From Thermoplasmata archaeon (lineage in GTDB: Archaea; Thermoplasmatota; Thermoplasmata; UBA10834), in assembly GCA_041550275.1 (NCBI GenBank), contig JBFEPA010000001.1, positions 1 through 47,916 on the forward strand: DNA of 47,916 nucleotides. The letters are read 5' to 3'. The translations under genes and the position numbers were made by a program. Position 1 is the first letter of the stretch, and the number at the start of each line of letters is the position of its first letter. The notes under the pieces are model-generated. The model had not been told where the DNA came from and made no database searches. It worked only from the letters and a program-made list of their open reading frames with translations. Below are positions 3,850 to 22,090 of the stretch, one piece after another.

Positions 3850-4572
3850 TAGAAGATGAACTATTCTACCGAACAGAAACCCCAGACCGCACGATATTCC
3901 CCCGATTGCCAAAGTCTCCAGTCCACTTACCAGCCTAGGCATCTTGGTAAGCTTCGTCTTCCATATCCCTAGCAAGAACAGGAAGGCAAGAATCGTGGCC
4001 GCGCTAACCAAAAGCGCGCTCTCAGGCGTTGACATTATGAAGAACGGCAGTATTGCGGGAAACGCTCCGACCAGAAAGGATAGCGATGCAATGGCGCCGA
4101 TCCTCCAAGGGTCATCAATCTGTCCCGGCGATATGCCAATCTCTTCCTGAACCATGAACTTCAGCCACAGTTTCTTATCGCTCGTGATCCTTTTAACCGC
4201 CGTATCCTGCTCCTCTGCAGAGAAACCGTATTCCTCGAAGATCTCGCGAATCTCTTGAGTTTCCTTCTCAGGCATCTCCTCGATCTCCTGAGTTTCCCTT
4301 CGCACTTGACTTTCGAAGAAATCCTTCTGCGCCTTCGTCGAGATGAAAGCACCGAAGAATATCGCTATAGCGCCTGCAGAAATCTGAGCCATACCAGCCA
4401 ATACTATGCTGTCATTTGTTTCCACGAGGGCAGAGACACCCGCGAGGAAGGCGACCGTCGTTATAAGACCAGTATCGATGGCATAGACGATATCTCGTAT
4501 CAACCGTCCCCGCGGCGTATGCCAGTCCTCTCCATGCCAAGCTTTGAGCCGATCTTGCTTACCGACCACCAT
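3841..4572 (-). CDS. VIT1/CCC1-family iron/manganese transporter
   Basis: 243 aa. It has an N-terminal cytosolic segment, TM helices ([15 protein letters not shown]..), a central acidic helical insert ([24 protein letters not shown]) and three C-terminal TM helices, which is the typical VIT family layout. Confidence 0.85.
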
Positions 4573-4771
4573 ACGCTATTCCATCTCTGCAACGACGTCG
4601 ACAAAGAAATCACTTTCCACGAACAAGCGTCTAAGGAAACCGCTTGGCGGGATTGCGAAGCGTCCGAGGATGGCCGTTAGATTTCCATCGGAGACCACGA
4701 ACGAAAATGCATGTCGCAACCACTTAATATCAACTACGCGATTGGTGATTGAGCACCTGGAGGGATCAGCC
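4573..4771. promoter_or_regulatory. Divergent control region between the VIT1 and catalase genes; candidate TATA box ttaatat at 4724-4730 and SD ggaggg at 4759-4764 for catalase
   Basis: An A/T-rich heptamer lies about 45 nt upstream of the catalase ATG, and GGAGGG lies 8 nt upstream of it. The region also holds a degenerate repeat-unit fragment (aaaatgcatgtcgcaacc, 4704-4721). Confidence 0.35.
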
Positions 4772-6301
4772 ATGGGTGGTGATGGAAAAACGAAGAGACT
4801 CACAAGGGCATTCGGCATGCCCGTTGGGGATGACCAGAACAGCAAGACCGCTGGAGAGAGAGGGCCCGTTCTCATCGAGGATGTTCATTTGCTTGAGAAG
4901 CTGGGGCACTTCGACCGCGAACGTATCCCAGAGCGCGTTGTGCATGCGAAAGGTGCGGGCGCAGGCGGATACTTCGAGGTCACCGCGGATGTCACGAAGT
5001 ACACGAAGGCGAAGTTCCTCTCCCAGGTCGGTAAGCGAACGGATGTGTTCGTCAGGTTCTCGACCGTTGGCGGGGAGAAGGGGTCTGCGGATTCAGAGCG
5101 CGACCCACGAGGTTTCGCCATCAAGTTCTACACGGAGGAAGGAAACTACGACCTGGTGGGCAACAACACACCGGTCTTCTTCATCCGAGACCCGATGAAG
5201 TTCCCGGACTTCATACACACTCAGAAACGGAACCCCGGTACCAATCTCAAGGATCCAGACGCATTCTGGGATTTCCTGTCACTCACGCCGGAATCGATCC
5301 ACCAAGTCACCATATTGTTCTCCGACCGCGGCATTCCCGCGACGTACCGGAACATGAATGGGTACAGCAGTCATACGTACAAGTGGTACAACAAGAACGG
5401 TGAATACTACTGGGTGCAGTACCACTTCAAGACTGACCAGGGAATAAAGAACCTCACTAGAGAGGAGGCGGATGTCATGCGAGGCAGGGACCCTGATCAC
5501 GCGACGAGGGATTTGTACGACGCGATAGCTCGGGGAGACCACCCATCCTGGACCCTCGAGATGCAGATAATGACCCCCGAGCAGGCGAAGGACTACCGTT
5601 TCGACATACTGGACATAACCAAGGTCTGGCCACACGCAGATTTTCCTCCAATCAAGATCGGGAAGATGGTGCTAAACCGCAACCCCGTCAACTATTTCGC
5701 TGAGGTCGAGCAGGCGGCGTTCTCGCCCAGCAACCTGGTGCCGGGCATAGCGGCTTCGCCGGACAAGATGCTCCAGGCGCGCCTATTCTCATATCACGAC
5801 ACGCACATCCACAGGCTGGGACCGAACTACCATCTGATACCGGTGAACGCGCCGAGGAACTCGCCGGAGCAGAGCTATCAGCGCGATGGATTCATGCGGA
5901 CCGATTCGAACGGAGGCGGAGGCCCAAACTACTGGCCGAACAGCTTCAACGGGCCAGAACCGGACATCTCTGCAAAGGAGCCTTTGTTCGACATCTCCGG
6001 AAAGGCGGGGCATCACCCCTACTCGCACCTGAACAGCGATTTTGTCCAGCCTGGCAACCTATACAGGAATGTGATGACGGAAGGAGACCGCGAGAACCTG
6101 GTGGGCAACATAGTGAGCCATCTGAGCGGAGCGCAGAAGCGCATACAGGTTCGACAGACCGCGCTGTTCTTCAAGGCAGACCTGGACTACGGCCAACGAG
6201 TAGCAGAGGGGCTAGGTCTTGACGCGAAGGAAGTCGAGCAACTATCGCGAGGGATTGGCAGAAATCCCACGGGAAATGGCGATGAATTGCCGAGATTGTG
6301 A
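4772..6301 (+). CDS. katE: Monofunctional heme catalase
   Basis: 509 aa from the ATG at 4772. Classic catalase motifs are present: [70 protein letters not shown] and [20 protein letters not shown]. The upstream part of the ORF (4544-4771) overlaps the VIT1 start and shows no catalase similarity. Confidence 0.97.
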
Positions 6302-6465
6302 CGTTGACGACGATTCGACATAGCTTCATCCCTCGCGAAGTCGCCTGATGGATGTTGGTCTTTAGGCAAACTGGTCACGCTAATATACCCCGTAACTCTG
6401 TACCCTTTTCGGAGGGGAGAGGCGATGTCGAGATGCCATATCTTTTCCAGTTGGAGGTACAGAGG

Positions 6466-7623
6466 ATGTCACGTAGAACGAATGGAATGTGTCTTGTAGC
6501 ATCCGTAGCAGCTGTCCTGCTAATACCGGGACTATGTGTGACTCCGAACGCAAGCGGAGAAACTGTGGTCTCATGGACCTTTGCAGTGTACATGAGCGTT
6601 GACAACGATCTTGAGGACGACTGGGAAAGTGCGAGCCTGCCATCATTGCTGAGCATACCAGCAAATCCAGACATCAGAATTGCCGTTATGGTGGACTGTC
6701 TGGAAACCGATGGGACAGAACTCCTTGAGATTTCCGGCGACAGCTATCAGGTTGTCAATACATACCCTGAGATGAATTTTGGAGACGGAGCTACCTTCAG
6801 TTGGTTCATCAGTGAAGTCTCAACCCTATACCCCTCTGAGAAGCTGTCTGTTACGGCTTCAGATCACGGCTCGGGATGGAAGGAATTCAGTTATGACCAG
6901 ACATCCGGAGACGAAATCCGAATGCCAGAAATGAAGGCCGCAATCGAGGATGCAGGTGTGTTCATTGACATTCTGTCGTTCGACGCTTGTCTGATGGGGA
7001 GCATCGAAGTGGCCTACGAAGCGTACACCACCGGTCTGGTCCACTACATGGTCGGTTCTGAGGAATCAGTCCCGCTGGATGGATTTCCCTACGATGACAT
7101 GCTGACTTCAGCAGCCTTGGACCCGACAAGAACCCCGGCGCAGGTGGCAGTCGACATGGTAGAGGGATATGGACAGCATTACGATCAGACCTCGGCCATG
7201 AGCGTAACCCTTTCGGCAGTGGATGTTCTGAGCATTGGCCAGTCAACGGCAACATTCCAGACGTGGTGCGGTTTGATGCATGACAATCTCGGTGTCTATG
7301 GGAGGGTCTACAAGGACGCTTTGAAGAAGGCCTACATCGCGTTTGGGACGATGAACTACGTGGACATGGCGGATCTCGGAGATACCCTTCTGGCCGACAG
7401 CCGGTTCTCTGACTCTGTCCTAAGGAGCGCGACCACAGGTATGGTAGCCGCGATTGACAGCGCGGTCATCGCCATCTACGCGAATCCAGATTGCCCAGAT
7501 AGCAGAGGATTGACCCTGTATTGGGCAACAAAAGGCGAGTGGCGCTACTTCGGAGCCAACTACGCAGATGTGCAGTTTGCCATCGATATGGGCTGGGCCG
7601 ATTTTCTGGCAGACTACAACTGA
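6466..7623 (+). CDS. Secreted clostripain-like cysteine peptidase (family C11)
   Basis: 385 aa from the ATG at 6466, with an SD ggagg upstream. A signal peptide is present. WTFAVYMSVDNDLE, the His motif SDHGSGW and the Cys motif SFDACLMGS match the C11 catalytic dyad context. Confidence 0.8.
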   Translation: MSRRTNGMCLVASVAAVLLIPGLCVTPNASGETVVSWTFAVYMSVDNDLEDDWESASLPSLLSIPANPDIRIAVMVDCLETDGTELLEISGDSYQVVNTYPEMNFGDGATFSWFISEVSTLYPSEKLSVTASDHGSGWKEFSYDQTSGDEIRMPEMKAAIEDAGVFIDILSFDACLMGSIEVAYEAYTTGLVHYMVGSEESVPLDGFPYDDMLTSAALDPTRTPAQVAVDMVEGYGQHYDQTSAMSVTLSAVDVLSIGQSTATFQTWCGLMHDNLGVYGRVYKDALKKAYIAFGTMNYVDMADLGDTLLADSRFSDSVLRSATTGMVAAIDSAVIAIYANPDCPDSRGLTLYWATKGEWRYFGANYADVQFAIDMGWADFLADYN

Positions 7624-7740: not shown

Positions 7741-7926
7741 GGTTAGCAAGGAGTCCGGCTAGGCGCAGAAGCCCTCTGATTGACAACCAGCTAGTGTTCG
7801 GGTTTCATTTACGGAGTTCTTCCCAACCCACCAGACCTCGCCCATGAGAAAAGGCCATAGGGGCGGAAGGGCATTCCGTACTTGTCGAAATGTCGATCCT
7901 CAGTATATTGAGCGCGAGTCCAGACC
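7741..7926 (+). repeat. Intergenic modular repeat, copy R5 (two tandem units)
   Basis: Unit 1 reads caaggagtccggctaggcgc..ccctctgattga..ccagctagtg..gggtttcatttacgg. Unit 2 reads cccatgagaaaaggccataggggcggaagggc..cttgtcgaaatg..tcgatcctc..agtatattgagcg. Confidence 0.7.
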
Positions 7927-7971
7927 TATAGATGTAGCAAGACAACCCTGATGAAGTAGGAGAGACATACG

Positions 7972-8502
7972 ATGAATAATATGTTGACAAGTGAAGTGCA
8001 GGCGCAACCGGCTTCAAGAACAAGGAGAATCCTTGTAGCCTACTTCTCGTGGTCCGGCAACACGCGTGAGATTGCCAATCAGATTCACAAGATCGTCGGC
8101 GGCAATCTCTTCGAAATCGTGAGCGTGGACAAGTATCCCAGCGATTACGACGAGACTGTGAAACAGGCAAGAAAGGAACTTGAGACAGGTTGCAGGCCTC
8201 AGCTGGTATCGGAAGTCGAGGACATCGAATCTTACAACGTGGTCTTCATCGGCTATCCTAACTGGTGTGAAACGATACCCGCGCCAGTGGCATCGTTCCT
8301 GTCAAAGTGCGATTCCACTGAGAAGACCATCGCACCGTTCTGCACGCACGGCGGAGACCGTCTGGGGAGAAGCGTCGAGGACATCGCCAGGCTATGCCAG
8401 CGGTCCACAGTCCTGGAAGGTCTTGCGGTCCGGGGTAGCGAAGTGAGGAACGCGCAAGGCAGAGTATCCGAGTGGCTGCGCAGAACTGGAGTGGCGGAAT
8501 AG
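7972..8502 (+). CDS. Flavodoxin-family protein
   Basis: 176 aa. RILVAYFSWSGNTREIA is the flavodoxin FMN-loop context. A later stretch reads YNVVFIGYPNW..APFCTHGG. An SD aggag lies upstream. Confidence 0.85.
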   Translation: MNNMLTSEVQAQPASRTRRILVAYFSWSGNTREIANQIHKIVGGNLFEIVSVDKYPSDYDETVKQARKELETGCRPQLVSEVEDIESYNVVFIGYPNWCETIPAPVASFLSKCDSTEKTIAPFCTHGGDRLGRSVEDIARLCQRSTVLEGLAVRGSEVRNAQGRVSEWLRRTGVAE

Positions 8503-8802: not shown

Positions 8803-9996
8803 TTGCGTACGGATTTCGGCATCAGTCTGGCAAGGCTTGCATTGGCCACAGTCCTGATAGCCATGGTCATGCTCCCCTTATCTGCAACCACCTCCTCGGC
8901 ACACCTACCGGTGTTTGACAGCGGAGGTGAGTCCTATGATACTGCGGATCGAATTGAGAACCTTGAGACATCGTTTGCCTTCTACGGCGAGCTGCCACTC
9001 ATGACGCCGGGAGACCCCGAAGGGTCGAAATACTATGTCTTTGAAGGGAAAGAAGGTCAGGAGCTGAAGTTCGAGATTGGCAAGAAGGAGTTCTTCTTCG
9101 CTCCTTGCGTGCTGCTAGTCGGGCCAGGGCTTCCGAACCCTGACAAGGATGCGAAGAACATCATCAACAGCAGCGGTCTGAACCTGCCGGCCGGATCGGG
9201 AGCGTTGGGATGGTCCTCCGTATTCCTGCCTTTCGTAATCTATCTCGCAGAGACAGAATTTGAGCCGTTCACCCAGACCACCTTCTATTACGCCTACAGC
9301 GAGAGCGTTCTGCTGCCGTCAGACGGGACGTATTACTTCATCATGACTGGTGTGGTGTATTCTGAGGAACTAGGAGGTTATCAGATAAGCTCTGGCAAGT
9401 ACTTCCTGGTCACCGGCTACGAGGAGGAGTTCACCGTGCTGGACTTCGTGCTCATGCCTTGGTACTGGTTGAAGGTTCAGAGCTTCTGGAGTGAGCATGG
9501 AGAGATGTTATTCATCTTGCCGACTGCGGCGGTTCTGCTCCTCCTCCTTGCTGCGGAGGCGTTCCGATTGAGGAAGGATGAGGATTTCTCCGGGAGGACG
9601 GAGCCTGCCAGATCTTTGTATTTCGTAGGTGCAACGGGCTCGTTCCTGATGATAGGTGGTGCAGTCCACCAGATATCGCTGCTGATAGTGTATTCGGGGG
9701 AGCACGAATGGGAGGGAATCGCGTTCCTCGTTCTCTCCCTACAGCTGGCAGGCATTGCTCTCGGGGTTACATCAGCCAGATTCGTGAAGAGGCATCTCTT
9801 CAACATGAAGGCGGCCTCATTGACCCTTGGGGGTGTAATCGTGACAATCGCCCTGGTGCTTGGGGCAGGTGTAATCATCGGACCGCTGTTGTTCTTTGGC
9901 AGTCTGGTTGTCATGATGCTAGTCAACCAGCGCGTGCATCGGGGTGAATCCCGGGGCGAAGAGGACATTCAACCTCAAGACAATCGCGATTCGTAG
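8803..9996 (+). CDS. Membrane protein of unknown function: signal peptide, about 200-aa extracellular domain, then 4-5 TM helices
   Basis: 397-aa ORF with a TTG start (uncertain). The predicted cleavage site ..TSSA/HLPVF would leave an N-terminal His. The C-terminal half is strongly hydrophobic. Confidence 0.6.
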   Translation: MRTDFGISLARLALATVLIAMVMLPLSATTSSAHLPVFDSGGESYDTADRIENLETSFAFYGELPLMTPGDPEGSKYYVFEGKEGQELKFEIGKKEFFFAPCVLLVGPGLPNPDKDAKNIINSSGLNLPAGSGALGWSSVFLPFVIYLAETEFEPFTQTTFYYAYSESVLLPSDGTYYFIMTGVVYSEELGGYQISSGKYFLVTGYEEEFTVLDFVLMPWYWLKVQSFWSEHGEMLFILPTAAVLLLLLAAEAFRLRKDEDFSGRTEPARSLYFVGATGSFLMIGGAVHQISLLIVYSGEHEWEGIAFLVLSLQLAGIALGVTSARFVKRHLFNMKAASLTLGGVIVTIALVLGAGVIIGPLLFFGSLVVMMLVNQRVHRGESRGEEDIQPQDNRDS

Positions 9997-10030
9997 ATCT
10001 CATAGCACGCGGTCTGCGTACTACCTTCAT

Positions 10031-10125
10031 TGATTTCACGAGGAAAGGCGATGAAAAGGTCTATATCCCGGTACAAAAACCCTCTGATTGAAAAATGGCC
10101 AGTCATCGCGTTTCAAAGTCGCTTC
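10031..10125 (+). repeat. Intergenic modular repeat, copy R7
   Basis: tgatttcacgaggaaaggcgatgaaaaggt matches R8 at 28 of 30 nt. The whole unit aligns to R10 at about 75% over roughly 75 nt. It contains ccctctgattga and ccagtcatc. A weak B-like tail (gcgtttcaaagtcgcttc) covers the cphA stop codon. Confidence 0.75.
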
Positions 10126-12737
10126 TTACTTTTCGCCAATAAATTCTCTTTGTATTCCAAAACATCAATGATTGCCCTATTAAAAAAGTTGGCCTGAATG
10201 ACAATCAGGTCGCCCTCTTTTGCCATTTTAAGAGCCGCTAGTATGGCAGCATGCTCTTCGGGGACCATCTCAATGTTATCTTCAGGGAATCCCGTGGATA
10301 GTATGCCCTTGCGCACCAGTTCAGCGGTTTCACCGGTCTTTCGCTGTCTGGGACACGCATCGCAAAGGATGATGTGATCGTACATATTCCCCATATTTCT
10401 GCCAAAATTGAATATGTCCACGTCTCTCCTGTCACCCGTGCCGCTTCCGACATTGATCTTTCTCCCTCTTGCAAGGTGAGGAATGAGATTCGCCAATGCT
10501 TCCAGGGCCGAGGGGTTGTGTCCGTAATCAATCAAAACCTTGAATGTGTCAACATCTATGAGATTCGCCCTGCCGGGTAATTGTCCCGTTGATGGATTGA
10601 ATGTAACAAGGCTGAGTTGTATGGTCTTGATATCTATGCCTATCGCATAAGTTGCCGCTACTACGGCCAGGGTATTGGAGACATTGAATGTTGCTTTCCC
10701 GTCAAAAGTAATCGGAATTGTGTTTATCTTCGCTATATGAATGTCAGATGCGCCTTTTCTCAGGATAATCTCTCCGTCCTTGATGGTCACGGCAACCCCA
10801 CCGTTGGAGATGTGAGATGCAAGTGCTGGATTATCATCGTGGATAGAGAATAATATAGATTTTGCCTTGATGACGTCTTTGTATTTCAGGGTCCACTCAT
10901 CATCGGCATTTAAAACAGCAAACCCCTCAGGTTTTACTGTTTCGACCACGAGTCCCTTGAGTTCTGCCAGTTCCTCCATGGTGTTGATTCCATCCAAGCC
11001 CAAGTGGTCGGGAGATACGTTTAGGACAACGCCTACATCGCTTTCATCGTAACCCAACCCCCTCCTCAGGATGCCGCCACGGGCGACCTCCAAGATTGCG
11101 TGGTCTACAAGCGAATCCTTCAGGATGTGTTTTGCTCCCCCCGGACCACTGTAGTCCCCCTTTAGTACCAATTGGTTTCCGATCTCGACGCCGTCCGTGC
11201 AGCACATTCCCACGTTCTTTCCCGCGTATTTCAGGATATGAGCTATAAATCGGACCGTGGTTGTCTTCCCGTTCGTACCGGTAACCGCTATGATGGGGAT
11301 TGTGCTCTTACTGCCTGGGGGGAACAGCATGTCGACAACAGGTTTGGCAACGTTTCGCTTGGTGCCGTAGCAAGGGTCCAGATGCATCCGGAATCCCGGG
11401 GCAGCGTTCACCTCTACGATCCCGCCGCCAGTTTCCTTCAGAGGCTTCTCAAGGTTGGGTGCTACCACATCGATTCCCATGACATTGATGTCAATTAATT
11501 TAGATATCCGCTCCGCCATCTTCTTGATATGAGGATGTACCTCATCAGTCACATCTATCGAGCAACCGCCAGTACTCATGTTGGCGGTGGATTTGAGGCG
11601 AAGTATTCTACCCTCAGGAAGTACATCCGTGAGTTTCCGCTCATGCTGTCTGAGCAGTCTCCTCGTCATGCTATCTATCCTTATTTTTGTAAGGACTTTC
11701 TCGTGTCCGATGCCGCGTCTCGGATCTTTGTTAATCGCGTCTATCAATTCGCGAATTGTTGATTTCCCGTCGCCCATCACGCTGGCAGGTTCCCTTCTCG
11801 CAGCCGCGACGAGCTCTCCATTGATGACCAGCAACCTGTGGTCATAACCTTCTAGATGCTTCTCAACAAGTACGTAGTCATGGAATTTCTTCGCGCTTGC
11901 GTATGCCATCCGGAGTTCCTTTTCGTTATTGACAAGTGCCGTGATACCCTTCCCATGATGACCGACCAGCGGTTTCACGGCAACTGGGTATCCCACATTG
12001 CTGGCAACAGTGACCGCTCCCTGCAGATCCCGCACAGATTCTCCCCTGGGAACAGGCACACCCGCATCCTCCAGTATCTCCTTGGTCTGCTCTTTATCGT
12101 CTGCAATATCAACGCCGATGGCAGAGGTATTGAACATCATGGTGGCCTGAATCCTCCGCTGGTGTACTCCGTGACCCAACTGAACATAACTCTGATTATT
12201 GAGGCGGATATACGGAATCCCGCGGCTCGCCGCCTCCTTTATTATCGAAAAAGTCGAGGGGCCAAATAGATTTGCCTCACGCACTTCCTTCAATTGAGAG
12301 ATGATTGAGGCAATCCTGATTCGTCGATTCTGGAATAAGGCATCCACTATCCTTACGGCCGCCTCTCCGGCTTCGATGCCAGCCTCGGGGCTTCGATATC
12401 TGAAGACAACGGTGTAAACGCCCTTTTCGGAGGTTTCGCGCGTCTTGCCGAAACCGACGTTCATATTCGCAAGACACTGGAGTTCAATCGCCACATGTTC
12501 GACGATATGACCCGCCCAGGTTCCGGTCTCGACCCTCTCCAAGAAACCACCGGGATAACCCAAGGAGCACCGATGTTCCGCTATGGTAGGTATCAGCCTG
12601 CAAAGTCTGTCTTTCAGGCCGGGAACCATATCTGACGGTTTTCCCTCCAGTTCGCCGATATCCAAAAGCATGTAGATTACAGGATAGCGACTGTAGTAGT
12701 TCGAGCCATAGAGGGCGCGGATTTCCCTAATAATCAT
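10113..12737 (-). CDS. cphA: Cyanophycin synthetase
   Basis: 874 aa. The N-terminus MIIREIRALYGSNYYSRYPVIYMLLDIGELE is characteristic of CphA. A central ATP-grasp region follows (GYPVAVKPLVGHHGKGI). The C-terminal Mur-ligase-like domain carries the P-loop VTGTNGKTTT. The length is typical of CphA1. Confidence 0.95.
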   Translation of the reverse strand: MIIREIRALYGSNYYSRYPVIYMLLDIGELEGKPSDMVPGLKDRLCRLIPTIAEHRCSLGYPGGFLERVETGTWAGHIVEHVAIELQCLANMNVGFGKTRETSEKGVYTVVFRYRSPEAGIEAGEAAVRIVDALFQNRRIRIASIISQLKEVREANLFGPSTFSIIKEAASRGIPYIRLNNQSYVQLGHGVHQRRIQATMMFNTSAIGVDIADDKEQTKEILEDAGVPVPRGESVRDLQGAVTVASNVGYPVAVKPLVGHHGKGITALVNNEKELRMAYASAKKFHDYVLVEKHLEGYDHRLLVINGELVAAARREPASVMGDGKSTIRELIDAINKDPRRGIGHEKVLTKIRIDSMTRRLLRQHERKLTDVLPEGRILRLKSTANMSTGGCSIDVTDEVHPHIKKMAERISKLIDINVMGIDVVAPNLEKPLKETGGGIVEVNAAPGFRMHLDPCYGTKRNVAKPVVDMLFPPGSKSTIPIIAVTGTNGKTTTVRFIAHILKYAGKNVGMCCTDGVEIGNQLVLKGDYSGPGGAKHILKDSLVDHAILEVARGGILRRGLGYDESDVGVVLNVSPDHLGLDGINTMEELAELKGLVVETVKPEGFAVLNADDEWTLKYKDVIKAKSILFSIHDDNPALASHISNGGVAVTIKDGEIILRKGASDIHIAKINTIPITFDGKATFNVSNTLAVVAATYAIGIDIKTIQLSLVTFNPSTGQLPGRANLIDVDTFKVLIDYGHNPSALEALANLIPHLARGRKINVGSGTGDRRDVDIFNFGRNMGNMYDHIILCDACPRQRKTGETAELVRKGILSTGFPEDNIEMVPEEHAAILAALKMAKEGDLIVIQANFFNRAIIDVLEYKENLLAKSKKRL

Positions 12738-13609
12738 TAATCATCCTCATTACCTTTCTGACAGGTCGGGCTGAGATACTCTCTTGTCCAGATGTTATAT
12801 CCATGCCCTTTGGTCAGGGTGTGAACCAGAACCCCTTCGACTGCTATAGCTTCTCCGTCTTCTAGTGAAGAGATGTTCGAATATTTTATGCCATGTCCGT
12901 CAAATATTACAACCAAACCGTTACCGATTGCCTCCAAAATGTGTCCCTTTCGAATAATCACCCCTGTGTCTTCCCCCAGGCCCAGGCCTATATATCCTGG
13001 GTTCAAAGAGACCACCTCCATCAACCTGCTGAACCGGCCTCTCTTCATGAAATGGCTGTCAATTATCATACGTTTTACCAGGCCGACACCCCCAGTCATC
13101 TGAACTACGCCCTTACATAGGGCTTCACCGCTCTCACCGCCATATATCATCGTATCCGACATTGACGATGCACCTGCACTTGTTCCGGCAATTACACATT
13201 TTTCATTGAAGTATCTTCTTCTGACCTCTTGAAGAACAGGGGTGCCTCCGAGTATGCTGGTAATCTTAAGCTGGTCGCCGCCCGTGAAGAATACTATGTC
13301 GGCTTTCCGGATTCGCTCTAAATACTCGTTGCTATTTGCCTGGTCTCTCGTCCCAATATGAATAAGGTTGGCATTTGATACACCAATCTTCTCAAATGCA
13401 TTGAGGTATGCCGTTCCGGTTTCTTCCGGTATTCCACTGGCCGTAGTAATGATCTCAGCAATCGGGTTATTGTTATTCGTAACCTCGATTATCTTTCTTA
13501 GTATATCCAGGTCATTATCCTTGTCCTCATTCCCACCTACGACGACCAAAACACCTTCAGGAATATCAGATCTGTTTCCCAACATGTCTGATGTTGTGTT
13601 TTTCATCAT
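12737..13609 (-). CDS. cphB: Cyanophycinase (peptidase S51)
   Basis: 290 aa from the ATG at 13609. Motifs include VVVGGNEDKD, FFTGGDQLKI and the Ser-nucleophile context AGTSAGASSMSDTMI. Its stop TAA overlaps the cphA ATG by 1 nt (TAATG at 12735-12739, minus strand). Confidence 0.9.
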   Translation of the reverse strand: MMKNTTSDMLGNRSDIPEGVLVVVGGNEDKDNDLDILRKIIEVTNNNNPIAEIITTASGIPEETGTAYLNAFEKIGVSNANLIHIGTRDQANSNEYLERIRKADIVFFTGGDQLKITSILGGTPVLQEVRRRYFNEKCVIAGTSAGASSMSDTMIYGGESGEALCKGVVQMTGGVGLVKRMIIDSHFMKRGRFSRLMEVVSLNPGYIGLGLGEDTGVIIRKGHILEAIGNGLVVIFDGHGIKYSNISSLEDGEAIAVEGVLVHTLTKGHGYNIWTREYLSPTCQKGNEDD

Positions 13610-13718
13610 ACCCCAGTACTCTATTTCCGTATTTAAGGACAATTGCAGTTCAACAAGTAATATACTACACCATACACCCCGCAAAAGCATTATCAATACC
13701 AATCATATAGGCGTGTTC
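13610..13718. promoter_or_regulatory. A/T-rich divergent control region between cphB and the Cys-Ntn hydrolase gene
   Basis: The spacer is 109 bp. TATA-like elements are present: tatttaagg (cphB side, about 30 nt upstream of its ATG) and taatatac / atcatatagg (plus-strand side). Confidence 0.35.
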
Positions 13719-14516
13719 ATGTGTCGCCTTTTCGGGTCGTTCTCGCTAGATTCTTCTGATCTTCGCCAGTACCTTTACCAAGATGAATGCTCCCTTCTTA
13801 ATCAATCCAATGTGAAGCCTTCTGAGAAGCAAGCACATGGATGGGGTCTCGCATACCTGGAAGACAAGGTGAAGGTTGTCAAGAGTCCTGGAGCGATATT
13901 CGACGAAGTACCACAATTCAAGGACATGGTTGGCAAGATGAATTCTCCTATTGTCCTTGCCCACATCAGACGTATGAGCAATCCTCGTAGGCTTCCAAGG
14001 AAGAGATTGATATCGATGGAGAACGCACAGCCTTTCTCCATACCAGATCTAATGTTTATTCATAATGGTGCAGTCAACAAACCAAATGAGGTGGATATCG
14101 GAGAATACAGAACATTGGTGAAAGGTGATAATGATTCCGAGGTGCTTTTCTGGCTTCTTGTAAAGAAACTTGAGGAAGAGAAACAGGTAGAGAAGGCATT
14201 GATTTCCGTGGAAAGAACATTGAACGCAACCGTAGAAAAAGGAAAGAAGCCTTTCACGGCCATCAATATGATATTTTCAGATGGCAAGGTGTTTCACGCC
14301 TACAACAACTATACTTGTCAACCCATGAATTCTCTGTGTTCCTCTAAACAGGGATATTACTCTATGAGTTATCTTGTGGAAAAAGACAGGATAATTGTTA
14401 TGTCAGAACCATCCAATCTGGATGATGATTGGCAGATCCTCAATAATCGTGAGATGTTGAGCGCCAGGATCGAGGACGGAAGATTATCCTACTCGATAAA
14501 GAGAATTCGGGTATGA
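13719..14516 (+). CDS. Class II glutamine amidotransferase-like Cys-Ntn amidohydrolase (YafJ/EgtC-type)
   Basis: 265 aa starting MCRLFG, so Cys2 is the nucleophile after Met removal. HGWGLAY and AHIRRMSN fit the GATase_4 fold. The longer ORF from 13368 overlaps cphB and is rejected. Confidence 0.8.
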   Translation: MCRLFGSFSLDSSDLRQYLYQDECSLLNQSNVKPSEKQAHGWGLAYLEDKVKVVKSPGAIFDEVPQFKDMVGKMNSPIVLAHIRRMSNPRRLPRKRLISMENAQPFSIPDLMFIHNGAVNKPNEVDIGEYRTLVKGDNDSEVLFWLLVKKLEEEKQVEKALISVERTLNATVEKGKKPFTAINMIFSDGKVFHAYNNYTCQPMNSLCSSKQGYYSMSYLVEKDRIIVMSEPSNLDDDWQILNNREMLSARIEDGRLSYSIKRIRV

Positions 14517-14661
14517 TTCTTGCTTGTCCAGCTGGCGAGTATAACCATGATCAATTACAGACACGGCCTGTACCAGGATTTCACATATGGGATTTCGATC
14601 TGTTCATCGAGCACCATCTCCAGAGTATCAATGCAGAAGTAACTGCTGACGGCTAGGGCGG

Positions 14662-15189
14662 TCAGACGGTTCTGTATTCGTGCTCGAACTCGTCCTCCCA
14701 ATGTGACGCGTATGAAATGTCGCCATCCTTGAACTTCCTGACTGCCAGTCCGGCCAGTGTATGGGCAAGCTCGGCGTCTCTCTCCCTCCAGACCGCTCTC
14801 GCGTCCGGAGGAACGAACAGATACGTTGGCGATTCGTCAATGAACCTCGGCGGCAACCTCGCAAGGGCGAATATGTCACACGCCCTCTCGTCTCCGGGTA
14901 TGCCCTGGGAATTGAACTGAGCTAGATGCATGAGCTCATGGGCAATCGTCCAATACGTCGGGTATCGCCATGCGCCGTTCTTCTCCTTCCGTACCTCCAG
15001 CTTCAGCTTGACGGACCCGCTGTTCGACTGAAAGACGAATCCCTCAAAGAACCGTGTCAAGCCTATTGTGATCTGCGGCTTCAGCTCCGGGAAGTAAGGC
15101 TGTAATGTGTTCAACCTCCGCGAAAGCTCTTCCCTAACCTCTTCCGGCAGCCCACGCGCTTTCCTCGTCCACGAGATCTCCATCGGCAT
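14662..15189 (-). CDS. Putative zinc metallopeptidase (HEXXH motif)
   Basis: 175 aa with an ATG start. It contains WTIAHELMHLAQF. No signal peptide is visible. I cannot resolve the family by eye (SprT/DUF45-like). Confidence 0.6.
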   Translation of the reverse strand: MPMEISWTRKARGLPEEVREELSRRLNTLQPYFPELKPQITIGLTRFFEGFVFQSNSGSVKLKLEVRKEKNGAWRYPTYWTIAHELMHLAQFNSQGIPGDERACDIFALARLPPRFIDESPTYLFVPPDARAVWRERDAELAHTLAGLAVRKFKDGDISYASHWEDEFEHEYRTV

Positions 15190-15240
15190 ATGACCCCCGT
15201 AGTACCCATCCAGTTCTTAGTTAATCCGATTCAAGCCCCT

Positions 15241-15377
15241 GAGAAGGAGGCCGAGAAGGAGTCTAGCTCGGTGCCAATTCCTAGACATAGAGCTGACCCA
15301 TTCAATCGGGTTTGCACGTCGCACAAACTGAACCGTCGATTTCACGAGGAAAAGCGATGAAAAGGTTTGCATATCGG
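15241..15377 (+). repeat. Intergenic modular repeat, copy R8 (full unit plus the start of a second)
   Basis: It reads gagaaggaggccgagaaggagtctagctcggtgcc..cccattcaatcgggtttgcacgtcgcac, then gatttcacgaggaaaagcgatgaaaaggtttgcatatcgg. It links the A, G and B modules to the module seen at the start of R7. Confidence 0.8.
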
Positions 15378-15437
15378 ATCGTTAGGACTTGGGCTCACCA
15401 AGATCTGTAGTATCAGTGTCGGAATCATTTGGTCCGA

Positions 15438-16595
15438 TTACGATAATCGCGACTCGTAATCCTCATATCGTGATCGACGGACGATCCTGACCTCGTTGGA
15501 TTTTGTGATTACCGCAATCGCCGGGAGCGGGATCCCATTGAACATGTTGTTGCTCACGACCGAATATGAAGCCAAGTCGCGGAACATGACTCTCGATCCT
15601 CTGTGCAGCGGTTTCTCGAATGAGAAATCTCCCAATATGTCCCCGGAGAGGCAGCTTCGGCTCGCCAATCGATATGTATGCTCCAGCCTGCCTGGCTCTT
15701 CTCCCCCGATAACCTCCAGCTTGTACGATGCGATCAGAACATCTTGAACATGAGCCCAGGCGGATATGTCTAGGATGGCGATGTCCATCTCGTTGCGAAC
15801 GATATCGAGTACCGTAGCCAATAGGACTCCTGCGTTCAACGCGACGGCCTCTCCCGGCTCCATGTAGACGTCTACGCCGTGCTCCTCTCTGAAATCTGAG
15901 ATGACCCTATACAACCGATCGATATCGTAATCCGGTGCAGTTACGAGCTGCCCTCCACCGAAGTTGACCCACTCGACCTGCGAGAGATGATGCCCGAACT
16001 TCTCCTCGACCACATTGACCAGCTTCTCCAGTGAGTCAGAGTTCTGCTGACACAGGGCGTGGAAATGGAGTCCCTCTATTCCCTCCGGAATGCCCTTCAG
16101 GTCATCGGCTTTCACGCCGAAGCGACTGCACCTCGCACATGGGTCCCAAAGACCGATTGGTATCTCGGAGTACTCGGGATTGATGCGAATGCCGCAGCTT
16201 ATCTTGCGTGGATTCTTCTCCACGAGTGGGAGAAGCCGTTCCCACTGGGGAATGGAGTTGAACACGATGTGATCGGAGATCTTGAGTATCTCCTCAAACT
16301 CGTGGTCGTCATAGGCAGGAGAGAACACATGGACCTCCTTCCCAAACCTCTCCTTTCCTAGACGCGCTTCGTATAGCCCGCTCGCGCAGGTTCCATGCAG
16401 ATATCGACCGATCAGAGGGAACAAATCGGGAATCGTGAATCCCTTCAGCGCCATGAGTATCTTGCAGCCAGTCAGTTCCTGGACGTTGCCAAGGATCTGG
16501 CAATTCCTCTCGATTGCCTGTTCGTCAATTACATAGCACGGCGAAGGAACCCTTGCCAATGCACCTTCCTCGTAACCGCTTGTGCGCTGCATCAT
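15438..16595 (-). CDS. nspC: Carboxy(nor)spermidine decarboxylase (PLP-dependent, alanine-racemase-fold)
   Basis: About 385 aa from the ATG at 16595; the ORF extends to a TTG at 16619. Motifs include CYVIDEQAIERN, ILMALKGF, HVFSPAY, GLHFHALC and EPGEAV, typical of CANSDC. Confidence 0.85.
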   Translation of the reverse strand: MMQRTSGYEEGALARVPSPCYVIDEQAIERNCQILGNVQELTGCKILMALKGFTIPDLFPLIGRYLHGTCASGLYEARLGKERFGKEVHVFSPAYDDHEFEEILKISDHIVFNSIPQWERLLPLVEKNPRKISCGIRINPEYSEIPIGLWDPCARCSRFGVKADDLKGIPEGIEGLHFHALCQQNSDSLEKLVNVVEEKFGHHLSQVEWVNFGGGQLVTAPDYDIDRLYRVISDFREEHGVDVYMEPGEAVALNAGVLLATVLDIVRNEMDIAILDISAWAHVQDVLIASYKLEVIGGEEPGRLEHTYRLASRSCLSGDILGDFSFEKPLHRGSRVMFRDLASYSVVSNNMFNGIPLPAIAVITKSNEVRIVRRSRYEDYESRLS

Positions 16596-16985
16596 GATCC
16601 ATAGGCATTCCCGCCTCAAAAAGGGTTACCGTTGTTCATGCAGGATTATGCATTGACCACTTCGAGGCTTCCCAAGGGTCAGGACAGAGTGATGTTCATT
16701 CGGCCGACACCAAGAACACTGGCACAAGTTGGGGGGACGAAGGCGCGAATCGGGAACCCGATAGTTGGCCGAGCATCAAGCTAGATTGAGGCCACAGAGG
16801 TAGAAAGGCGAGAAAGGATTGTTGGTGCCCGAGCTGTTACCTTCCAAGGAGTTCGTGACGCGTCTCGGTGAGAAGGGCTCAAGGTGAACGAGGGGGTCAC
16901 GACGTCGTGGGTCGAGGGTAGTTCATCGGATTTGTCCGGAAGGTCTATGACCCGACTTGCACATGTTTGCCGGGGAGATCGCGTC

Positions 16986-18819: not shown

Positions 18820-20349
18820 CTACGCCGACAGTTCGAGTATGAACTCGTACGCCTCCAGCCCCAGGGTGGTGTCCGATCCCATGAGCGCGGATACGGCTGC
18901 GTCAGTATCTCCATCAGCAATCGCCTCGGCAGCGATCGCCTCCGCCTCCGCGTTCTTCTCGATGGCTCCGGCCTCCCACTCGGTCAACACAGGCGCGAGC
19001 GCTATCCATGCCTCGAACGTCTCCTCCCTGAGCAGGCTCGCGGCCTTCCATACAGTGCCGTCCACATACGCCGAGAGCGTCCCGACGAGCTCTCCTGGCC
19101 GCTCCATGAGGCCGTTGTGGAGGGGGAAGTAGGGCGTATATCCAGGATTGTTGATGGCCGTCCACATGACCGACATGAGGGACGGGTTCTCGGGGTCTAT
19201 CTCGAACACTCCCGCGGCGACGGTTCTGATGTTGCATATCGAGAACCCGGGCCAACCGAAGCCCCATGTGCCCCAGGGCATCTCGTCAAGATGCTCCTCG
19301 ATGATCTCCCAGGGCTGCGAGTTGCCGTAGTCGTCCACATCCCTCGTGAACGACATGAGGTCCTGCGCCGTTACGACGTCGTCGTTCTCCGAGAGCAGTT
19401 CGTAAGCGCGGTCCATCCTGGAGACCGAAGGGACCCAGAAGTACCCGAAGTCCTCGTTCACGACCCAGTCGAAGAACGGCGGCAACGTGTAGTGGTTCGT
19501 GTGCACGGCAACGCCGTCCGTTATCTCCTGCCAAACGGTGTCCTCGCCGTCCTCGGTCTGGTAGCATGACGACACCGCCTCTATGAACGCAGCGGAGTCC
19601 TTGTCAGCGACCATGAGGCTCGTGCCACCGTATTTGTCAACGGCGCGGACGAGCTCGATCGCCTCGTCCACGGTCGAGCACATCTCGAGCACGTGGCGGT
19701 TCAATGGGTTCTCGTCCCAGCCGCCCTCATAGAAGTCGGGCACGGGCACCCAGTTGTTGCCGTCGCTTAGGCCCGCGTCGTTGAGGCCGAATGAGATGCC
19801 CCAGTCACCCGCGCCCGCGACGGCGATGAATCCGTGCCTTCCATCGATCGGCTCGACGACTAGGAGAACGTTCGGGGCGTTCGCGTCCCGCGTCTTCGAC
19901 GCGAGCGTGTTCCCAGTCGCAGAGCCCGTCCCGACGGCGACGAGTATCGTGCAGCCGTCATGGCTTCGAACGGATGAGCCGAACATGTTCATCGCCAGAA
20001 GCTCGCTGAAATCCACGCCCGAGGCGGCTGCCATGGCGCGTATCTCCGTGACCATGTGTTCAGGCATCGATGAGGACAGCGACACGGCCCGAGCGGCCAT
20101 GGCCCGCTTGTCCATTCCTTTGACCGTGGCCTCCTCCCAGAACCCGTTCAGGTTGTCCCTGATCATCGGGCCTACGGCGCTGCCGTAGGCCGTCCCACGC
20201 TCTTCCGGCGTGCCTGAGAGGACCACGATGGGCATCCCGTCGACCACGGGCAAGGTCGCCTCCGCCCCCATGGACCCGACGGGCACGAACACCATGAGAC
20301 ACAACACGGTCGCTACACATACTGCAGACAATACACTAAACGCCCTCAT
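18820..20349 (-). CDS. Secreted C45-family Ntn peptidase / acyltransferase-like protein
   Basis: 509 aa with a signal peptide. LSGTPEERGTAYG and the candidate nucleophile context HDGCTILVAVG..ASKTRD resemble the family of acyl-CoA:6-APA acyltransferase. Confidence 0.7.
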   Translation of the reverse strand: MRAFSVLSAVCVATVLCLMVFVPVGSMGAEATLPVVDGMPIVVLSGTPEERGTAYGSAVGPMIRDNLNGFWEEATVKGMDKRAMAARAVSLSSSMPEHMVTEIRAMAAASGVDFSELLAMNMFGSSVRSHDGCTILVAVGTGSATGNTLASKTRDANAPNVLLVVEPIDGRHGFIAVAGAGDWGISFGLNDAGLSDGNNWVPVPDFYEGGWDENPLNRHVLEMCSTVDEAIELVRAVDKYGGTSLMVADKDSAAFIEAVSSCYQTEDGEDTVWQEITDGVAVHTNHYTLPPFFDWVVNEDFGYFWVPSVSRMDRAYELLSENDDVVTAQDLMSFTRDVDDYGNSQPWEIIEEHLDEMPWGTWGFGWPGFSICNIRTVAAGVFEIDPENPSLMSVMWTAINNPGYTPYFPLHNGLMERPGELVGTLSAYVDGTVWKAASLLREETFEAWIALAPVLTEWEAGAIEKNAEAEAIAAEAIADGDTDAAVSALMGSDTTLGLEAYEFILELSA

Positions 20350-20520
20350 GCGAAACTCCCCCTACCACGCGGGCTTCCGGCCGGTCGACTTGCTCGGCGG
20401 AGCTGCCCGCGCTCCGATGCCCTGACCGTAGTACGTGATAGAAATCGGTTGCGGTCAGTGCAATCGTCGGACGCGGCGTCGGAGCGCCGAACTGCCTTTC
20501 GACCTGGTCCTCCGGGACCG

Positions 20521-20605
20521 ACGAGGATAGGCGATGGAAGAGTGTATATCCTGGTGCGAAAAATCTGATCGAGAAACGGCTAGACACCGCCGCGTGCACA
20601 CGGAT
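20521..20605 (+). repeat. Intergenic modular repeat, copy R10
   Basis: acgaggataggcgatggaagagtgtatatcctggtgcgaaaaatctgatcgagaaacggctagacaccgccgcgtgcacacgg aligns to R7 at about 75%. Confidence 0.7.
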
Positions 20606-20617
20606 CAGTGGGCCGAC

Positions 20618-22090
20618 TCAGTATTTCGCGAGGAGTTTCTTCGACTCCTCCTTCACAACCCTATCGAGTTCCGTCTCCACATCCTTCTCAAGCGGCGTCA
20701 CAACATGCTCCCTGAGGATCCTCCTGACATGGTCTTTGGCAGTATCCTGAATCGGCTTGAAGCCCTCTTTCGCTGCTCTATCGGAACTCCGCTTGTCCCA
20801 AAGCGGCGAAACCCGCAACTCCCCCTTGCGGATGTTGTCCATCGTGTGAGGTTCGGCGAGGAAGTTGCCCATGTGGCCCACCTTGTCTATCAGATTCATC
20901 GCGAGACCTCCTTCATCCACACGGATCCCTCGCAGAATCCTCGCGACATCGTTGAACATTTCGTTGTTTATGACCATCATCTCGAGACTGCTAGCGCCTT
21001 CCCACCCACCTCCAAGTCCGGAGATGCTGTCCGGTCCGGCCAGGGCGGGCATCAAGACGGTCATCATCTGCTCGAATCCCATCTGCATGTCCCACCTGGT
21101 GATATCGGATGACATGCCATTGGCGTCGGATACCATCCCGTACCTGTGAGCCATCTGCACTAGGGCCGCAGACACAAGGCCTTCCTCGGGAACTCCCCAC
21201 AGGTCCCTTCCCGAGCGGGGGTCCATGATGCAGACCCTGCCCGAGTAGACGGTGGGCAAGCTGGTGGTTACCGTCTGCATCAGCATGATACCTCCGAACT
21301 GTTCCGCGTTCTGCTGTGCCAACGCCCCGCTCAGAGTCACTGGTCCCGTCTCTCCGCAGATCGGGCAGGGAATGATGGTGAACGGGATTCCCTGCTCGAC
21401 GCTCCGCAGAAGAACTTCGCAGTTATCGTCTGCAAACGTGAGAGGGCTGCTGGGGGACCCGCCGAGGCTGAATAACGGTCTCTTCCGAAGCTCCTCTACT
21501 CCTCCTGATACACAGGCCCACATCTTCACGAGGGAATCGACCGTTTCCTCGTTCGGAGCGTACCCGCCGGCCGCCTTTCCCGAGTTCTTCATGGCCGCCT
21601 CCATTGTCTTCAGAACCAGCAGTTCCGGCGGAACATCATTCGCCATCACGAGGCTGGATGCCATGTGGTTGTTCTCGAGAGCATCGCCGAGCTTGGCTGC
21701 CATCTCAACGTCCTCGTAGGTCGAGTGTCTCGGTCGACCTGTCTCAAGGTCGACTATATGTGGGTCGCCTCCGCCTGCGCACGGGAACATGTGCTCCCCG
21801 TCATACTCGATATCCCATATTCTGTCTCGGGCAGGGAATATGTTACGATGGGTGATCTTGCCGATCGCATCCTCGACCATGGATCTAGGGAAGGTGATGA
21901 CTCCCTTCCTCGTCGGATGAGCTGCAGCACCTGCATTCAGAAGCCTCTTCCTGGCATCCTCGCTGTCGTACCTGATACCAGTCCTCTCCAGTATTCTCAG
22001 GGAGGCCTCGTGTATCATGTCGACCTGGTCATCGGTCAAAACCTTCAGTCTTGAATTCGGATTGAGTTTGATCCCTCTCACTGACATCAT
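20618..22090 (-). CDS. MttB-superfamily methyltransferase, non-pyrrolysine (paralog 1)
   Basis: 490 aa. The N-terminus LTDDQVDMIHEASLRILERTGIRYDSEDARKRLLNAGA is typical of the trimethylamine methyltransferase family. The frame is uninterrupted, with no in-frame TAG. Its ATG overlaps the stop of the upstream permease gene (22087-22090). Confidence 0.9.
   Translation of the reverse strand: MMSVRGIKLNPNSRLKVLTDDQVDMIHEASLRILERTGIRYDSEDARKRLLNAGAAAHPTRKGVITFPRSMVEDAIGKITHRNIFPARDRIWDIEYDGEHMFPCAGGGDPHIVDLETGRPRHSTYEDVEMAAKLGDALENNHMASSLVMANDVPPELLVLKTMEAAMKNSGKAAGGYAPNEETVDSLVKMWACVSGGVEELRKRPLFSLGGSPSSPLTFADDNCEVLLRSVEQGIPFTIIPCPICGETGPVTLSGALAQQNAEQFGGIMLMQTVTTSLPTVYSGRVCIMDPRSGRDLWGVPEEGLVSAALVQMAHRYGMVSDANGMSSDITRWDMQMGFEQMMTVLMPALAGPDSISGLGGGWEGASSLEMMVINNEMFNDVARILRGIRVDEGGLAMNLIDKVGHMGNFLAEPHTMDNIRKGELRVSPLWDKRSSDRAAKEGFKPIQDTAKDHVRRILREHVVTPLEKDVETELDRVVKEESKKLLAKY

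Follow-up and report, generated by a model that had tools for sequence, protein, structure and literature searches.

The closest described systems are bacterial cphBA pairs, represented here by the cyanophycin synthetase CphA1 of Synechocystis sp. UTEX2470 (PDB 7LG5) and the cyanophycinase CphB of Synechocystis PCC 6803 (3EN0). In bacteria, β-Asp-Arg is cleaved by IadA, IaaA or CphZ, and clusters are known in which cphA1 and a cyanophycinase gene are accompanied by a gene for one of these three enzymes (PMC10206079, PMC9974463). CphZ itself was an uncharacterized hydrolase adjoining cphBA that proved to be a dedicated dipeptidase, and the cyanophycin dipeptidases of Firmicutes and Bacteroidota are still unidentified (PMC10206079). 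Among archaea, Culexarchaeia were found to carry a predicted cyanophycinase only, which was read as a sign of scavenging (PMC9723716). Here, we analyzed 47,916 nt of contig JBFEPA010000001.1 from a Thermoplasmata archaeon (GCA_041550275.1), hereafter the window, which carries a three-gene cyanophycin cassette composed of cphA, cphB and a gene for an N-terminal nucleophile (Ntn) amidohydrolase that we call GAT4. We consider it probable that this cassette is native to Thermoplasmata and was relocated or exchanged among Thermoplasmata lineages, with no recent import from a bacterium, and that its three enzymes serve storage and mobilization. The cassette and its genes are as follows.

10120 to 14557: three-gene cyanophycin cassette (cphA, cphB and amidohydrolase gene), delimited by the blastn block, the breakpoint sequence and composition.
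10113 to 12737, minus strand: cphA, cyanophycin synthetase 1, 874 aa, assigned by TIGR02068, Pfam domains and alignment with 7LG5.
12737 to 13609, minus strand: cphB, predicted intracellular cyanophycinase, 290 aa, peptidase S51, assigned by TIGR02069 and Pfam Peptidase_S51.
13719 to 14516, plus strand: GAT4, stand-alone class-II glutamine-amidotransferase-like Cys-Ntn amidohydrolase, 265 aa, starting with MCRLFG.

The window shares the cphB-then-cphA order of the bacterial pairs and the logic of the bacterial three-gene clusters, in which a synthetase and a cyanophycinase are combined with one small-molecule amidohydrolase. Unlike bacterial cphBA, it has a Thermoplasmata host, archaeal-looking putative promoters and an apparently mobile low-G+C cassette; its third gene is not IadA, IaaA or CphZ, and the CphAs of Clostridia returned by a genome scan are 36 to 42% identical. 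In contrast to the lone cyanophycinase of Culexarchaeia, the window encodes a complete synthetase coupled to a cyanophycinase, which would imply endogenous storage. An earlier note on this DNA, made from the sequence without database searches, had described a two-gene island. Its cphA/cphB pair was correctly recognized, but the amidohydrolase gene on the plus strand at 13719 to 14516 had been overlooked, so that the unit is a three-gene cassette.

We found CphA to be full length, as the earlier note had claimed for both cphA and cphB. It scored 1148 bits against TIGR02068 (curated cut-off 850) and 1112 bits against NF010623 (cut-off 877), and Pfam recognized the Cyanophycin_syn N domain (PF18921), an ATP-grasp domain, Mur_ligase_M (PF08245) and Mur_ligase_C (PF02875). 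Residues 6 to 861 aligned with residues 6 to 867 of 7LG5 at 797 bits and without large gaps, and thus over the full length of the Synechocystis enzyme, with the same N-G-M architecture and all three active-site motifs kept. The active sites of CphA1 have been defined by mutation of E82 in the Cx19HxxEH motif, of H267 in the G domain and of D585/H586 in the M domain, and the Cx19HxxEH zinc-peptidase motif of the N domain generates primers (PMC9262961). In the window CphA, this motif comprises C57, H77, E80 and H81 and was present in 123 of the 123 homologs aligned. The alignment further identified H261 of the ATP-grasp G domain as the equivalent of H267, and D577-H578 of the Mur-ligase-like M domain as the equivalents of D585-H586. 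The GTNGKT P-loop, also seen earlier, was present with K491 as its lysine. Because Cx19HxxEH and the other motifs of that study are intact, the window CphA is classed, by the same criteria (PMC9262961), as a predicted full-length, primer-independent CphA1.

CphB scored 237 bits against TIGR02069 (cut-off 126.6) and could be aligned with two cyanophycinases of known structure, 7UQV and 3EN0, whose triad columns it conserves. Its S144, H186 and E213 aligned with S152, H194 and E221 of the 3EN0 chain, which we take to be the native catalytic residues S132, H174 and E201. The Ser-His-Glu triad of Synechocystis CphB is thus kept, and the nucleophile serine, S144, lies in GTSAGAS, in agreement with the S51 serine context noted before. 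A mechanical open reading frame (ORF) call had placed the cphB start at a TTG at 13702. We rejected this candidate and set the start at the ATG at 13609, which matches the relatives and independent gene calls. By inspection, the N terminus so defined, MMKNTTSDMLGNRSDIPEG, has no hydrophobic stretch. Because it carries no such signal, CphB should act inside the cell, like Synechocystis CphB, from which a signal peptide is likewise absent.

The two genes are translationally coupled, as proposed earlier. At their junction the minus strand reads GAGGATGATTAATG, where the TAA stop of cphB (12739 to 12737) and the cphA start codon ATG (12737 to 12735) have one base in common, giving TAATG at 12739 to 12735, and a GAGG lies seven bases upstream of the cphA ATG. 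Upstream of cphB, the sequence and its alignment with loci L015 and L101 delimited one further feature.

13610 to 13718: divergent intergenic region between cphB and GAT4, 38.5% G+C.

This region contains two boxes: TTAAATA (TTATATA in L015), which precedes the cphB ATG by about 20 nt, and TTATCAATA, which precedes the GAT4 start by about 21 nt. Both TATA-like boxes are conserved in the alignment with L015 and L101, and their distance from the start codons points to archaeal TATA promoters whose transcripts would have no leader or a short one.

The steps proposed for CphA and CphB are deduced from the families to which the proteins belong and from their intact sites. In times of amino-acid abundance, CphA would polymerize Asp and Arg with ATP into multi-L-arginyl-poly-L-aspartate in vivo, its G domain extending the Asp backbone and its M domain adding Arg, and the metallopeptidase site of its N domain should make it independent of a primer. 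CphB would degrade the polymer intracellularly to β-Asp-Arg, and GAT4 would cleave the β-aspartyl isopeptide bond of this dipeptide, freeing Asp and Arg. Together, the three genes would provide a peptide-consuming archaeon with an internal nitrogen and carbon store that has its own mobilization route.

We compared GAT4 with characterized families. GAT4 scored 47.8 bits against Pfam GATase_4 (PF13230; cut-off 23) and 81.3 bits against the EgtC equivalog model TIGR03442, below the cut-off of 218.65. These were the only Pfam and NCBIfam models that it matched; it showed no match to the families of IadA (amidohydrolase), IaaA (Asparaginase_2) or CphZ (AstE/AspA-M14). In an alignment of 24 sequences, Arg84, Asn116-Gly117 and Asp139 were invariant and Cys2 was nearly invariant. 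The AlphaFold model had a mean predicted local distance difference test score of 94.6, and its closest folds in the PDB were those of EgtC (4ZFK, 4ZFL and 4ZFJ), with template modelling scores of 0.72 to 0.85, followed by the uncharacterized 3MDN and then by the glutaminase domains of GlmS and PurF. GAT4 and EgtC thus share a stand-alone class-II amidotransferase-type fold, an N-terminal Cys and the Arg/Asn-Gly/Asp set. EgtC hydrolyzes the γ-glutamyl isopeptide of a small molecule, a bond that is the one-carbon-longer analogue of a β-Asp-X bond. Unlike EgtC, GAT4 is linked to cphBA; it is only 17 to 19% identical to EgtC in sequence and misses the cut-off of the EgtC model. Among those ORFs of the window that were scanned, which are part of its ORFs, none matched the EgtB or EgtD families in Pfam or NCBIfam. 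Like GAT4, IaaA is an Ntn hydrolase, but the family of GAT4 (GATase_4, with a Cys nucleophile) is otherwise unrelated to it, and the activity of GAT4 is putative.

The association of GAT4 with the cyanophycin genes was conserved. GAT4 adjoins cphB in divergent arrangement in the window, in L100, L018 and L020, in L015, L016 and L019, and in L105. Across these four lineages with a full cassette, GAT4 is 79 to 93% identical and CphA 75 to 94%. Wherever the context of a GAT4 ortholog of 75% identity or more is known, the gene stands beside cphB, and this holds in four lineages. A general link between GATase_4 proteins and cyanophycin was also considered and dismissed: at none of about 79 loci encoding homologs of 35 to 55% identity was cphA or cphB found nearby. 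The linkage is confined to the GAT4 subfamily. Compared with 18 other aligned members, the linked subfamily differs at four otherwise conserved positions, namely F8, H40 (replacing Asp), M86 (replacing Ala) and F192. The motif around M86 presumably corresponds to the segment of GlmS and PurF that binds the substrate α-carboxylate.

The strongest alternative for the third gene is that GAT4 is an unrelated neighbor, for example a hydrolase of γ-glutamyl compounds or a detoxifying amidase, and that β-Asp-Arg is split by an isoaspartyl dipeptidase encoded elsewhere. We give this explanation an even chance. Indeed, GAT4 is divergently transcribed and is not co-operonic with cphBA, its closest characterized relative, EgtC, works on a γ-glutamyl substrate, and members of its family are widespread without cphBA. 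Because L014, L017 and L003 carry cphBA without GAT4, the protein is dispensable in these genomes or replaced by a gene elsewhere. Furthermore, we know of no class-II amidotransferase-type enzyme that acts on β-aspartyl substrates. Mere neighborhood does not readily explain, however, why the linkage is kept in four lineages whose other neighbors all differ, why GAT4 moves with cphBA within one homology block, or why the linked subfamily is distinct from the 18 other members at conserved positions that include H40 and M86. Together with the precedent of CphZ, these observations make GAT4 a possible β-Asp-Arg dipeptidase, although we hold this role to be somewhat less probable than its absence. 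The combined proposal, that GAT4 represents a fourth class of cyanophycin dipeptide hydrolase and that the three-gene unit is a self-contained mobile nitrogen-storage cassette among sediment Thermoplasmata, is more doubtful still.

Other loci carry other enzymes at this place. In L103 (10638 to 11891) and L104 (10622 to 11881), whose CphAs are 59 to 64% identical to that of the window, a gene for an M20-family peptidase directly follows cphB-cphA and, in L104, overlaps cphA by 4 nt. These related loci, archaeal or unassigned, have the M20 peptidase instead of GAT4, and because they carry it after cphA, different cassettes may have recruited different hydrolases for the same slot. The M20 peptidase is itself another putative cyanophycin dipeptidase. 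We also observed distant GATase_4 homologs (37 to 40% identity) at L050 (about 7892 to 8221), L072 (about 6545 to 6874) and L074 (about 7893 to 8222). At a distance of about 1 kb from these genes, an ATP-grasp gene encodes a protein that shares about 30% identity with the G domain of CphA, a pairing that may represent a separate amidohydrolase and peptide-ligase system.

To define the limits of the cassette, we compared the window with L100, a contig of a sister species (GCA_044240365.1) whose CphA is 94% identical to that of the window. A blastn comparison returned a single block, from window position 14557 to 10120, with 95.8% identity, and the flanks were unrelated; the same block was 93.9% identical to L018. 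One breakpoint lies within the last cphA codon, where the window reads Leu-stop and L100 reads Ala-stop, and the other lies about 41 nt past the GAT4 stop. Both cassette ends coincide with the limits of the low-G+C stretch. L100 carries, after cphA, a paralogous Opp operon with only 65 to 75% identity to the window's own. The three-gene arrangement was also found in L015, L016 and L019 (CphA 75%, GAT4 79%) and in L105 (CphA 77%, GAT4 80%), with flanks that are different or not known. The base composition of the cassette and its surroundings was as follows.

Window: cassette 47.7% G+C (10113 to 14516), flanks 56.0% (remaining window).
L100: cassette 45.8% G+C, flanks 53.2%.
L015: cassette 45.4% G+C, flanks about 50 to 53%.
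L105: cassette 45.7% G+C, contig ending near the cassette edges.

The cassette thus stays at 45 to 48% G+C in hosts of 50 to 56%. The copies of cphBA that lack GAT4 track the G+C of their hosts, with 44% in 46% for L014, 58% in 60% for L017 and 59% in 62% for L003.

Within the window, the composition of single genes was compared by overall G+C and by G+C at third codon positions (GC3).

cphA: G+C 50.1%, GC3 0.56.
cphB: G+C 45.7%, GC3 0.48.
GAT4: G+C 43.0%, GC3 0.48.
25 other genes of the window: G+C 55.6 ± 3.2%, GC3 0.68 ± 0.07.

The earlier note had counted 32 to 48% G+C in spots of the island and had proposed a sliding-window analysis of G+C, tetranucleotides and codon usage. Carried out with 4.4-kb windows, this analysis placed the island at the extreme for both G+C and tetranucleotides. 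The island is the minimum in G+C, with a z-score of about -4.8, and its tetranucleotide distance to the remainder, 0.35, is the largest; outside the island, the average is 0.19 and no value exceeds 0.27. Among 27 genes, GAT4 (0.56) and cphB (0.46) take the top two ranks in Karlin codon-bias distance; the value for cphA (0.31) is high given its 873 codons, and its G+C taken alone lies inside the spread of host genes. The compositional anomaly of the island is therefore real and its region distinct, but it is weaker for cphA than the spot counts had implied.

CphA, CphB and GAT4 agree in their pairwise identities, which set the window and L100 apart from L015 and L105, and because all three give the same grouping, the genes travel together. 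Relatives without GAT4 occur in both of these subgroups, which requires at least two losses or gains of GAT4. Many cassette-bearing metagenome contigs measure just 3 to 5 kb, so that assemblies seem to break off close to the ends of the cassette. We also looked for recombination within cphB-cphA and found no convincing mosaic; across the four full cassettes, the trees of the genes are congruent. The window CphB is slightly closer to those of L015 and L014 and the window CphA to that of L017, and by sliding identity this difference sits in the poorly conserved CphB N terminus and in the high-G+C hosts.

The surroundings of the cassette contain a pair of direct repeats and one additional ORF.

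10032 to 10071, plus strand: direct repeat copy 1, 40 nt, imperfect, with the core GATTTCACGAGGAAAGGCGATGAAAAGGT, in the intergenic region 3' of cphA.
15338 to 15377, plus strand: direct repeat copy 2, 40 nt, imperfect, 5306 nt from copy 1.
14662 to 15189, minus strand: ORF of 175 aa with HELMH at residues 84 to 88, a zinc-peptidase-like motif; G+C 56%, host-like.

The two copies are identical at 28 of 29 core bases, with 0 such matches expected by chance. They bracket cphA, cphB, GAT4 and the 175-aa ORF, a segment of 5.3 kb that exceeds the 4.4-kb cassette. In the sister species, a longer, lineage-specific repeated intergenic element of about 90 to 180 nt, located at L100 10537 to 10668 and L018 1636 to 1816, brackets about 11 kb that include the cassette. 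Copy 1 with its right flank (to 10121) matches one half of this element at 89 to 92%, and copy 2 with its left flank (15241 to 15337) matches the other half at 79 to 83%. This layout is the one expected from integration of a circular molecule via the core. The alternative is two diverged full copies, because the non-matching halves keep a weak residual similarity, and for the same reason we kept a clean Campbell-type model, with each copy in the window as one half of an element, only as a lead. Other explanations of the repeat were tried and rejected. As a structured or known RNA it found no support: nothing relevant was found in Rfam over 9900 to 15500 at E ≤ 1, and the fold z-scores of the 40-nt repeat ranged from -0.7 to +0.65 on both strands of three copies. 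As a viral or proviral attachment site, its core had no exact match in IMG/VR. The repeats are thus supportive of a rearrangement whose mechanism they leave unexplained.

The 175-aa ORF lies within the repeat-bracketed segment but outside the conserved cassette. We dismissed it as a member of the system: it has no family match in Pfam or NCBIfam, its G+C is host-like, and the ORF is absent at that position in the sister species. It is thus probably not part of the cyanophycin system. At L018, we noticed a short-chain dehydrogenase ORF after GAT4 (1044 to 1811, minus strand), whose N-terminal glycine-rich motif is apparently missing and which extends as far as the repeated element; the rearrangement may have truncated it.

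These data bear on the possibility of purely vertical inheritance, in which cphBA would be an old Thermoplasmata resident and its low G+C would result from gene-specific amino-acid or expression constraints. In agreement with this, cphBA of the relatives always lies slightly under the G+C of the host and tracks it (44/46, 47/50, 58/60 and 59/62), the three gene trees are mutually congruent, and the position of the cassette is stable over six run assemblies of the window's population. Nevertheless, we consider this explanation unlikely. The sister species has cassette DNA that is 96% identical and entirely different flanks, with breakpoints exactly at the cassette ends, and the neighborhood differs in every lineage examined. 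Additionally, the offset from the host amounts to 8 points in the window and to 13 points for GAT4, compared with 2 to 3 points for cphA in relatives that carry cphBA only, and direct repeats bracket the region. Because the neighborhood differs per lineage and the G+C stays at 45 to 48%, inheritance was not simply vertical, and transfer or rearrangement within Thermoplasmata fits best.

To determine where the cassette came from, we examined the best 120 CphA homologs listed, which are 56 to 100% identical to the window CphA and of which a minority carry organism names. Among these, the named matches at 58 to 84% identity are all archaeal (11 of 11), and they come from metagenome-assembled genomes (MAGs) named 'Methanobacteriota archaeon', Thermoplasmatota, Thermoplasmata, Candidatus Saliniplasma and Candidatus Natronoplasma. 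A twelfth archaeal name (Thermoplasmatota) appears at 57%, and the first bacterial names, Bacteroidales and Acidobacteriota, at 56 to 57%. In a scan of one genome per GTDB species, two archaeal MAGs matched at 80 to 85%, and all other matches were bacterial, at 36 to 42%, mostly from Clostridia. In a bootstrapped neighbor-joining tree rooted on Clostridia, the clade of the window CphA had 100% bootstrap support and its named members were all archaeal. The CphAs of Acidobacteriota and Bacteroidales also formed a 100% clade, which was sister (100%) to another Thermoplasmatota group. At least one inter-domain transfer has taken place, with a direction that is not readable from these data.

The relatives are truly archaeal, because their cphBA stands among archaeal core genes. 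In GCA_020697715.1, a single 709-aa gene separates cphBA from the S12-S7-EF2-EF1alpha-S10 genes, about 2.3 kb away. The neighbors of cphBA include the genes for S8e, SRP19 and the family-B DNA polymerase PolB in GCA_043799545.1, and DUF531 together with further archaeal genes in GCA_018903355.1. For L103 and L104, a domain assignment from gene context was tried and dropped, as their neighbors are not diagnostic.

A recent acquisition of a cphBA island straight from a bacterium, with the low G+C as a donor signature and a lineage otherwise without the pathway, is therefore very improbable. What speaks for it is that the region is compositionally foreign to its host and sharply bounded, that the cyanophycin enzymes characterized so far are bacterial (PMC10206079, PMC11915815), and that the Bacteroidales and Acidobacteriota CphAs are little more distant than the archaeal ones. 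This is outweighed by the archaeal identity of all named homologs at 58% or more, by the exclusively archaeal names in the fully supported window clade, by the occurrence of the cassette in at least four Thermoplasmata lineages, and by the merely 36 to 42% identity of the best bacterial genomes in the GTDB scan. The putative promoters also look archaeal, as each of the two starts is preceded, at about 20 nt, by a TATA-like box. The horizontal acquisition proposed in the earlier note can thus be kept in the sense of a discrete transferable unit, mobile within Thermoplasmata, but not in the sense of a bacterial import. Nor did the idea hold that the pathway is otherwise missing from the lineage, in which cphA homologs proved largely to be common.

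An assembly or binning artefact, with a piece of bacterial DNA joined to an archaeal contig, has next to no probability. The contig is metagenome-derived and the G+C shifts abruptly at both ends of the island, but the relatives of the cassette are archaeal themselves, and the junction of cphA with the gene for a 397-aa membrane protein is present in contigs assembled separately from six sequencing runs. The GAT4-side junction was found in two of these six run contigs and again in another genome assembly, GCA_041545865.1, whose sequence is 99.8% identical to that of the window along 17.9 kb. Because both junctions recur in independent assemblies, a chimera, which the earlier note had raised as a possible refutation, is effectively excluded.

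We thus favor a cassette that is native to Thermoplasmata and has been relocated or exchanged among its lineages. Besides the points already raised for GAT4, several observations weigh against this reading. The functions of the archaeal CphA, CphB and GAT4 are predicted ones. The backbone of the CphA tree has a bootstrap support of just 6 to 38%, and unnamed CphA clades, including those of L103 and L104, could be bacterial. No integrase, transposase or recombinase family was detected among the scanned ORFs, and there is no tRNA gene in the window. Finally, an empty target site was not found among the contigs listed: of the contigs that were sufficiently long and carried the identical flanking protein, 8 of 8 show cphA beside it.

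In the published work that we searched, cyanophycin is regarded as a polymer of bacteria. A 2025 survey of Mur-domain proteins described CphA as specific to bacteria (PMC11915815), and the main genomic survey of cyanophycin covered bacterial genomes only (PMC10206079). In 2022, archaeal cyanophycin degradation was said to have been extremely little discussed, without experimental evidence (PMC9723716). Our literature search found no paper that links cyanophycin with Thermoprofundales, MBG-D, Methanomassiliicoccales or class-II amidotransferases. However, dozens of these archaeal proteins already carry the label 'cyanophycin synthetase' from NCBI and JGI pipelines, so that the archaeal novelty claimed earlier stands for the literature but not for the databases. 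CphA and CphB are ordinary members of well-characterized families, and it is the domain of their host that is unusual. The partnership with an amidohydrolase and the mobility of the cassette could be new variants.

Complete modules for synthesis and degradation, with intact active sites, are thus established in a major group of sediment archaea, with dozens of Thermoplasmatota relatives. This is relevant to how nitrogen and carbon are stored in the deep and benthic biosphere, and it offers enzymologists a new CphA1 clade. GAT4 bears on the question of which enzymes finish the breakdown of cyanophycin where IadA, IaaA and CphZ are absent. If GAT4 were indeed a dipeptidase and the cassette mobile, cyanophycin would be a storage polymer of archaea too and not of bacteria alone.

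Other genes of the window include the following.

1402 to 2094: HTH_10 regulator gene.
4544 to 6301: catalase.
6352 to 7623: C11 clostripain-family peptidase.
22087 to 27968: Opp-type peptide ABC transporter.
36963 to 37583: TATA-binding protein (TBP) gene.
37951 to 44019: TSP3-repeat protein of 2022 aa.

The archaeal character of the surroundings, previously deduced from the TBP and HTH_10 genes, was confirmed. The best named matches of the TBP belong to a Thermoplasmata archaeon (83 to 88%), followed by Methanomassiliicoccales (79 to 81%), and because its best named relatives are those of a Thermoplasmata archaeon, we assign the host to the Thermoplasmata on the basis of this protein. The binding protein of the Opp-type transporter has 1278 aa and contains PKD domains, and an M24 peptidase is also encoded in the window. 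The C11 peptidase, the Opp-type transporter and the M24 peptidase make a lifestyle based on the degradation of proteins and peptides plausible, in line with the earlier suggestion.

Three full-length ORFs of the MttB superfamily (18820 to 22090, 28094 to 29569 and 29753 to 32259) contain no in-frame stop, and for this reason they are predicted to be non-pyrrolysine members. An AAT/C45 Ntn-hydrolase gene accompanies each of two of them, with an overlap of 4 nt in one of these pairs. An Rfam match to PYLIS_3 at 29078 to 29177 (42.2 bits, cut-off 38) falls inside a stop-free ORF and is probably a similarity of coding sequence rather than a pyrrolysine insertion signal. Just outside the repeat-bracketed segment, at 15438 to 16619 on the minus strand, lies nspC, which encodes a carboxynorspermidine decarboxylase (TIGR01047, 450 bits, cut-off 409). 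The carboxynorspermidine route to polyamines draws on aspartate semialdehyde and on diamines derived from arginine, and cyanophycin stores the same two amino acids; the adjacency of nspC to the cassette may be coincidental.

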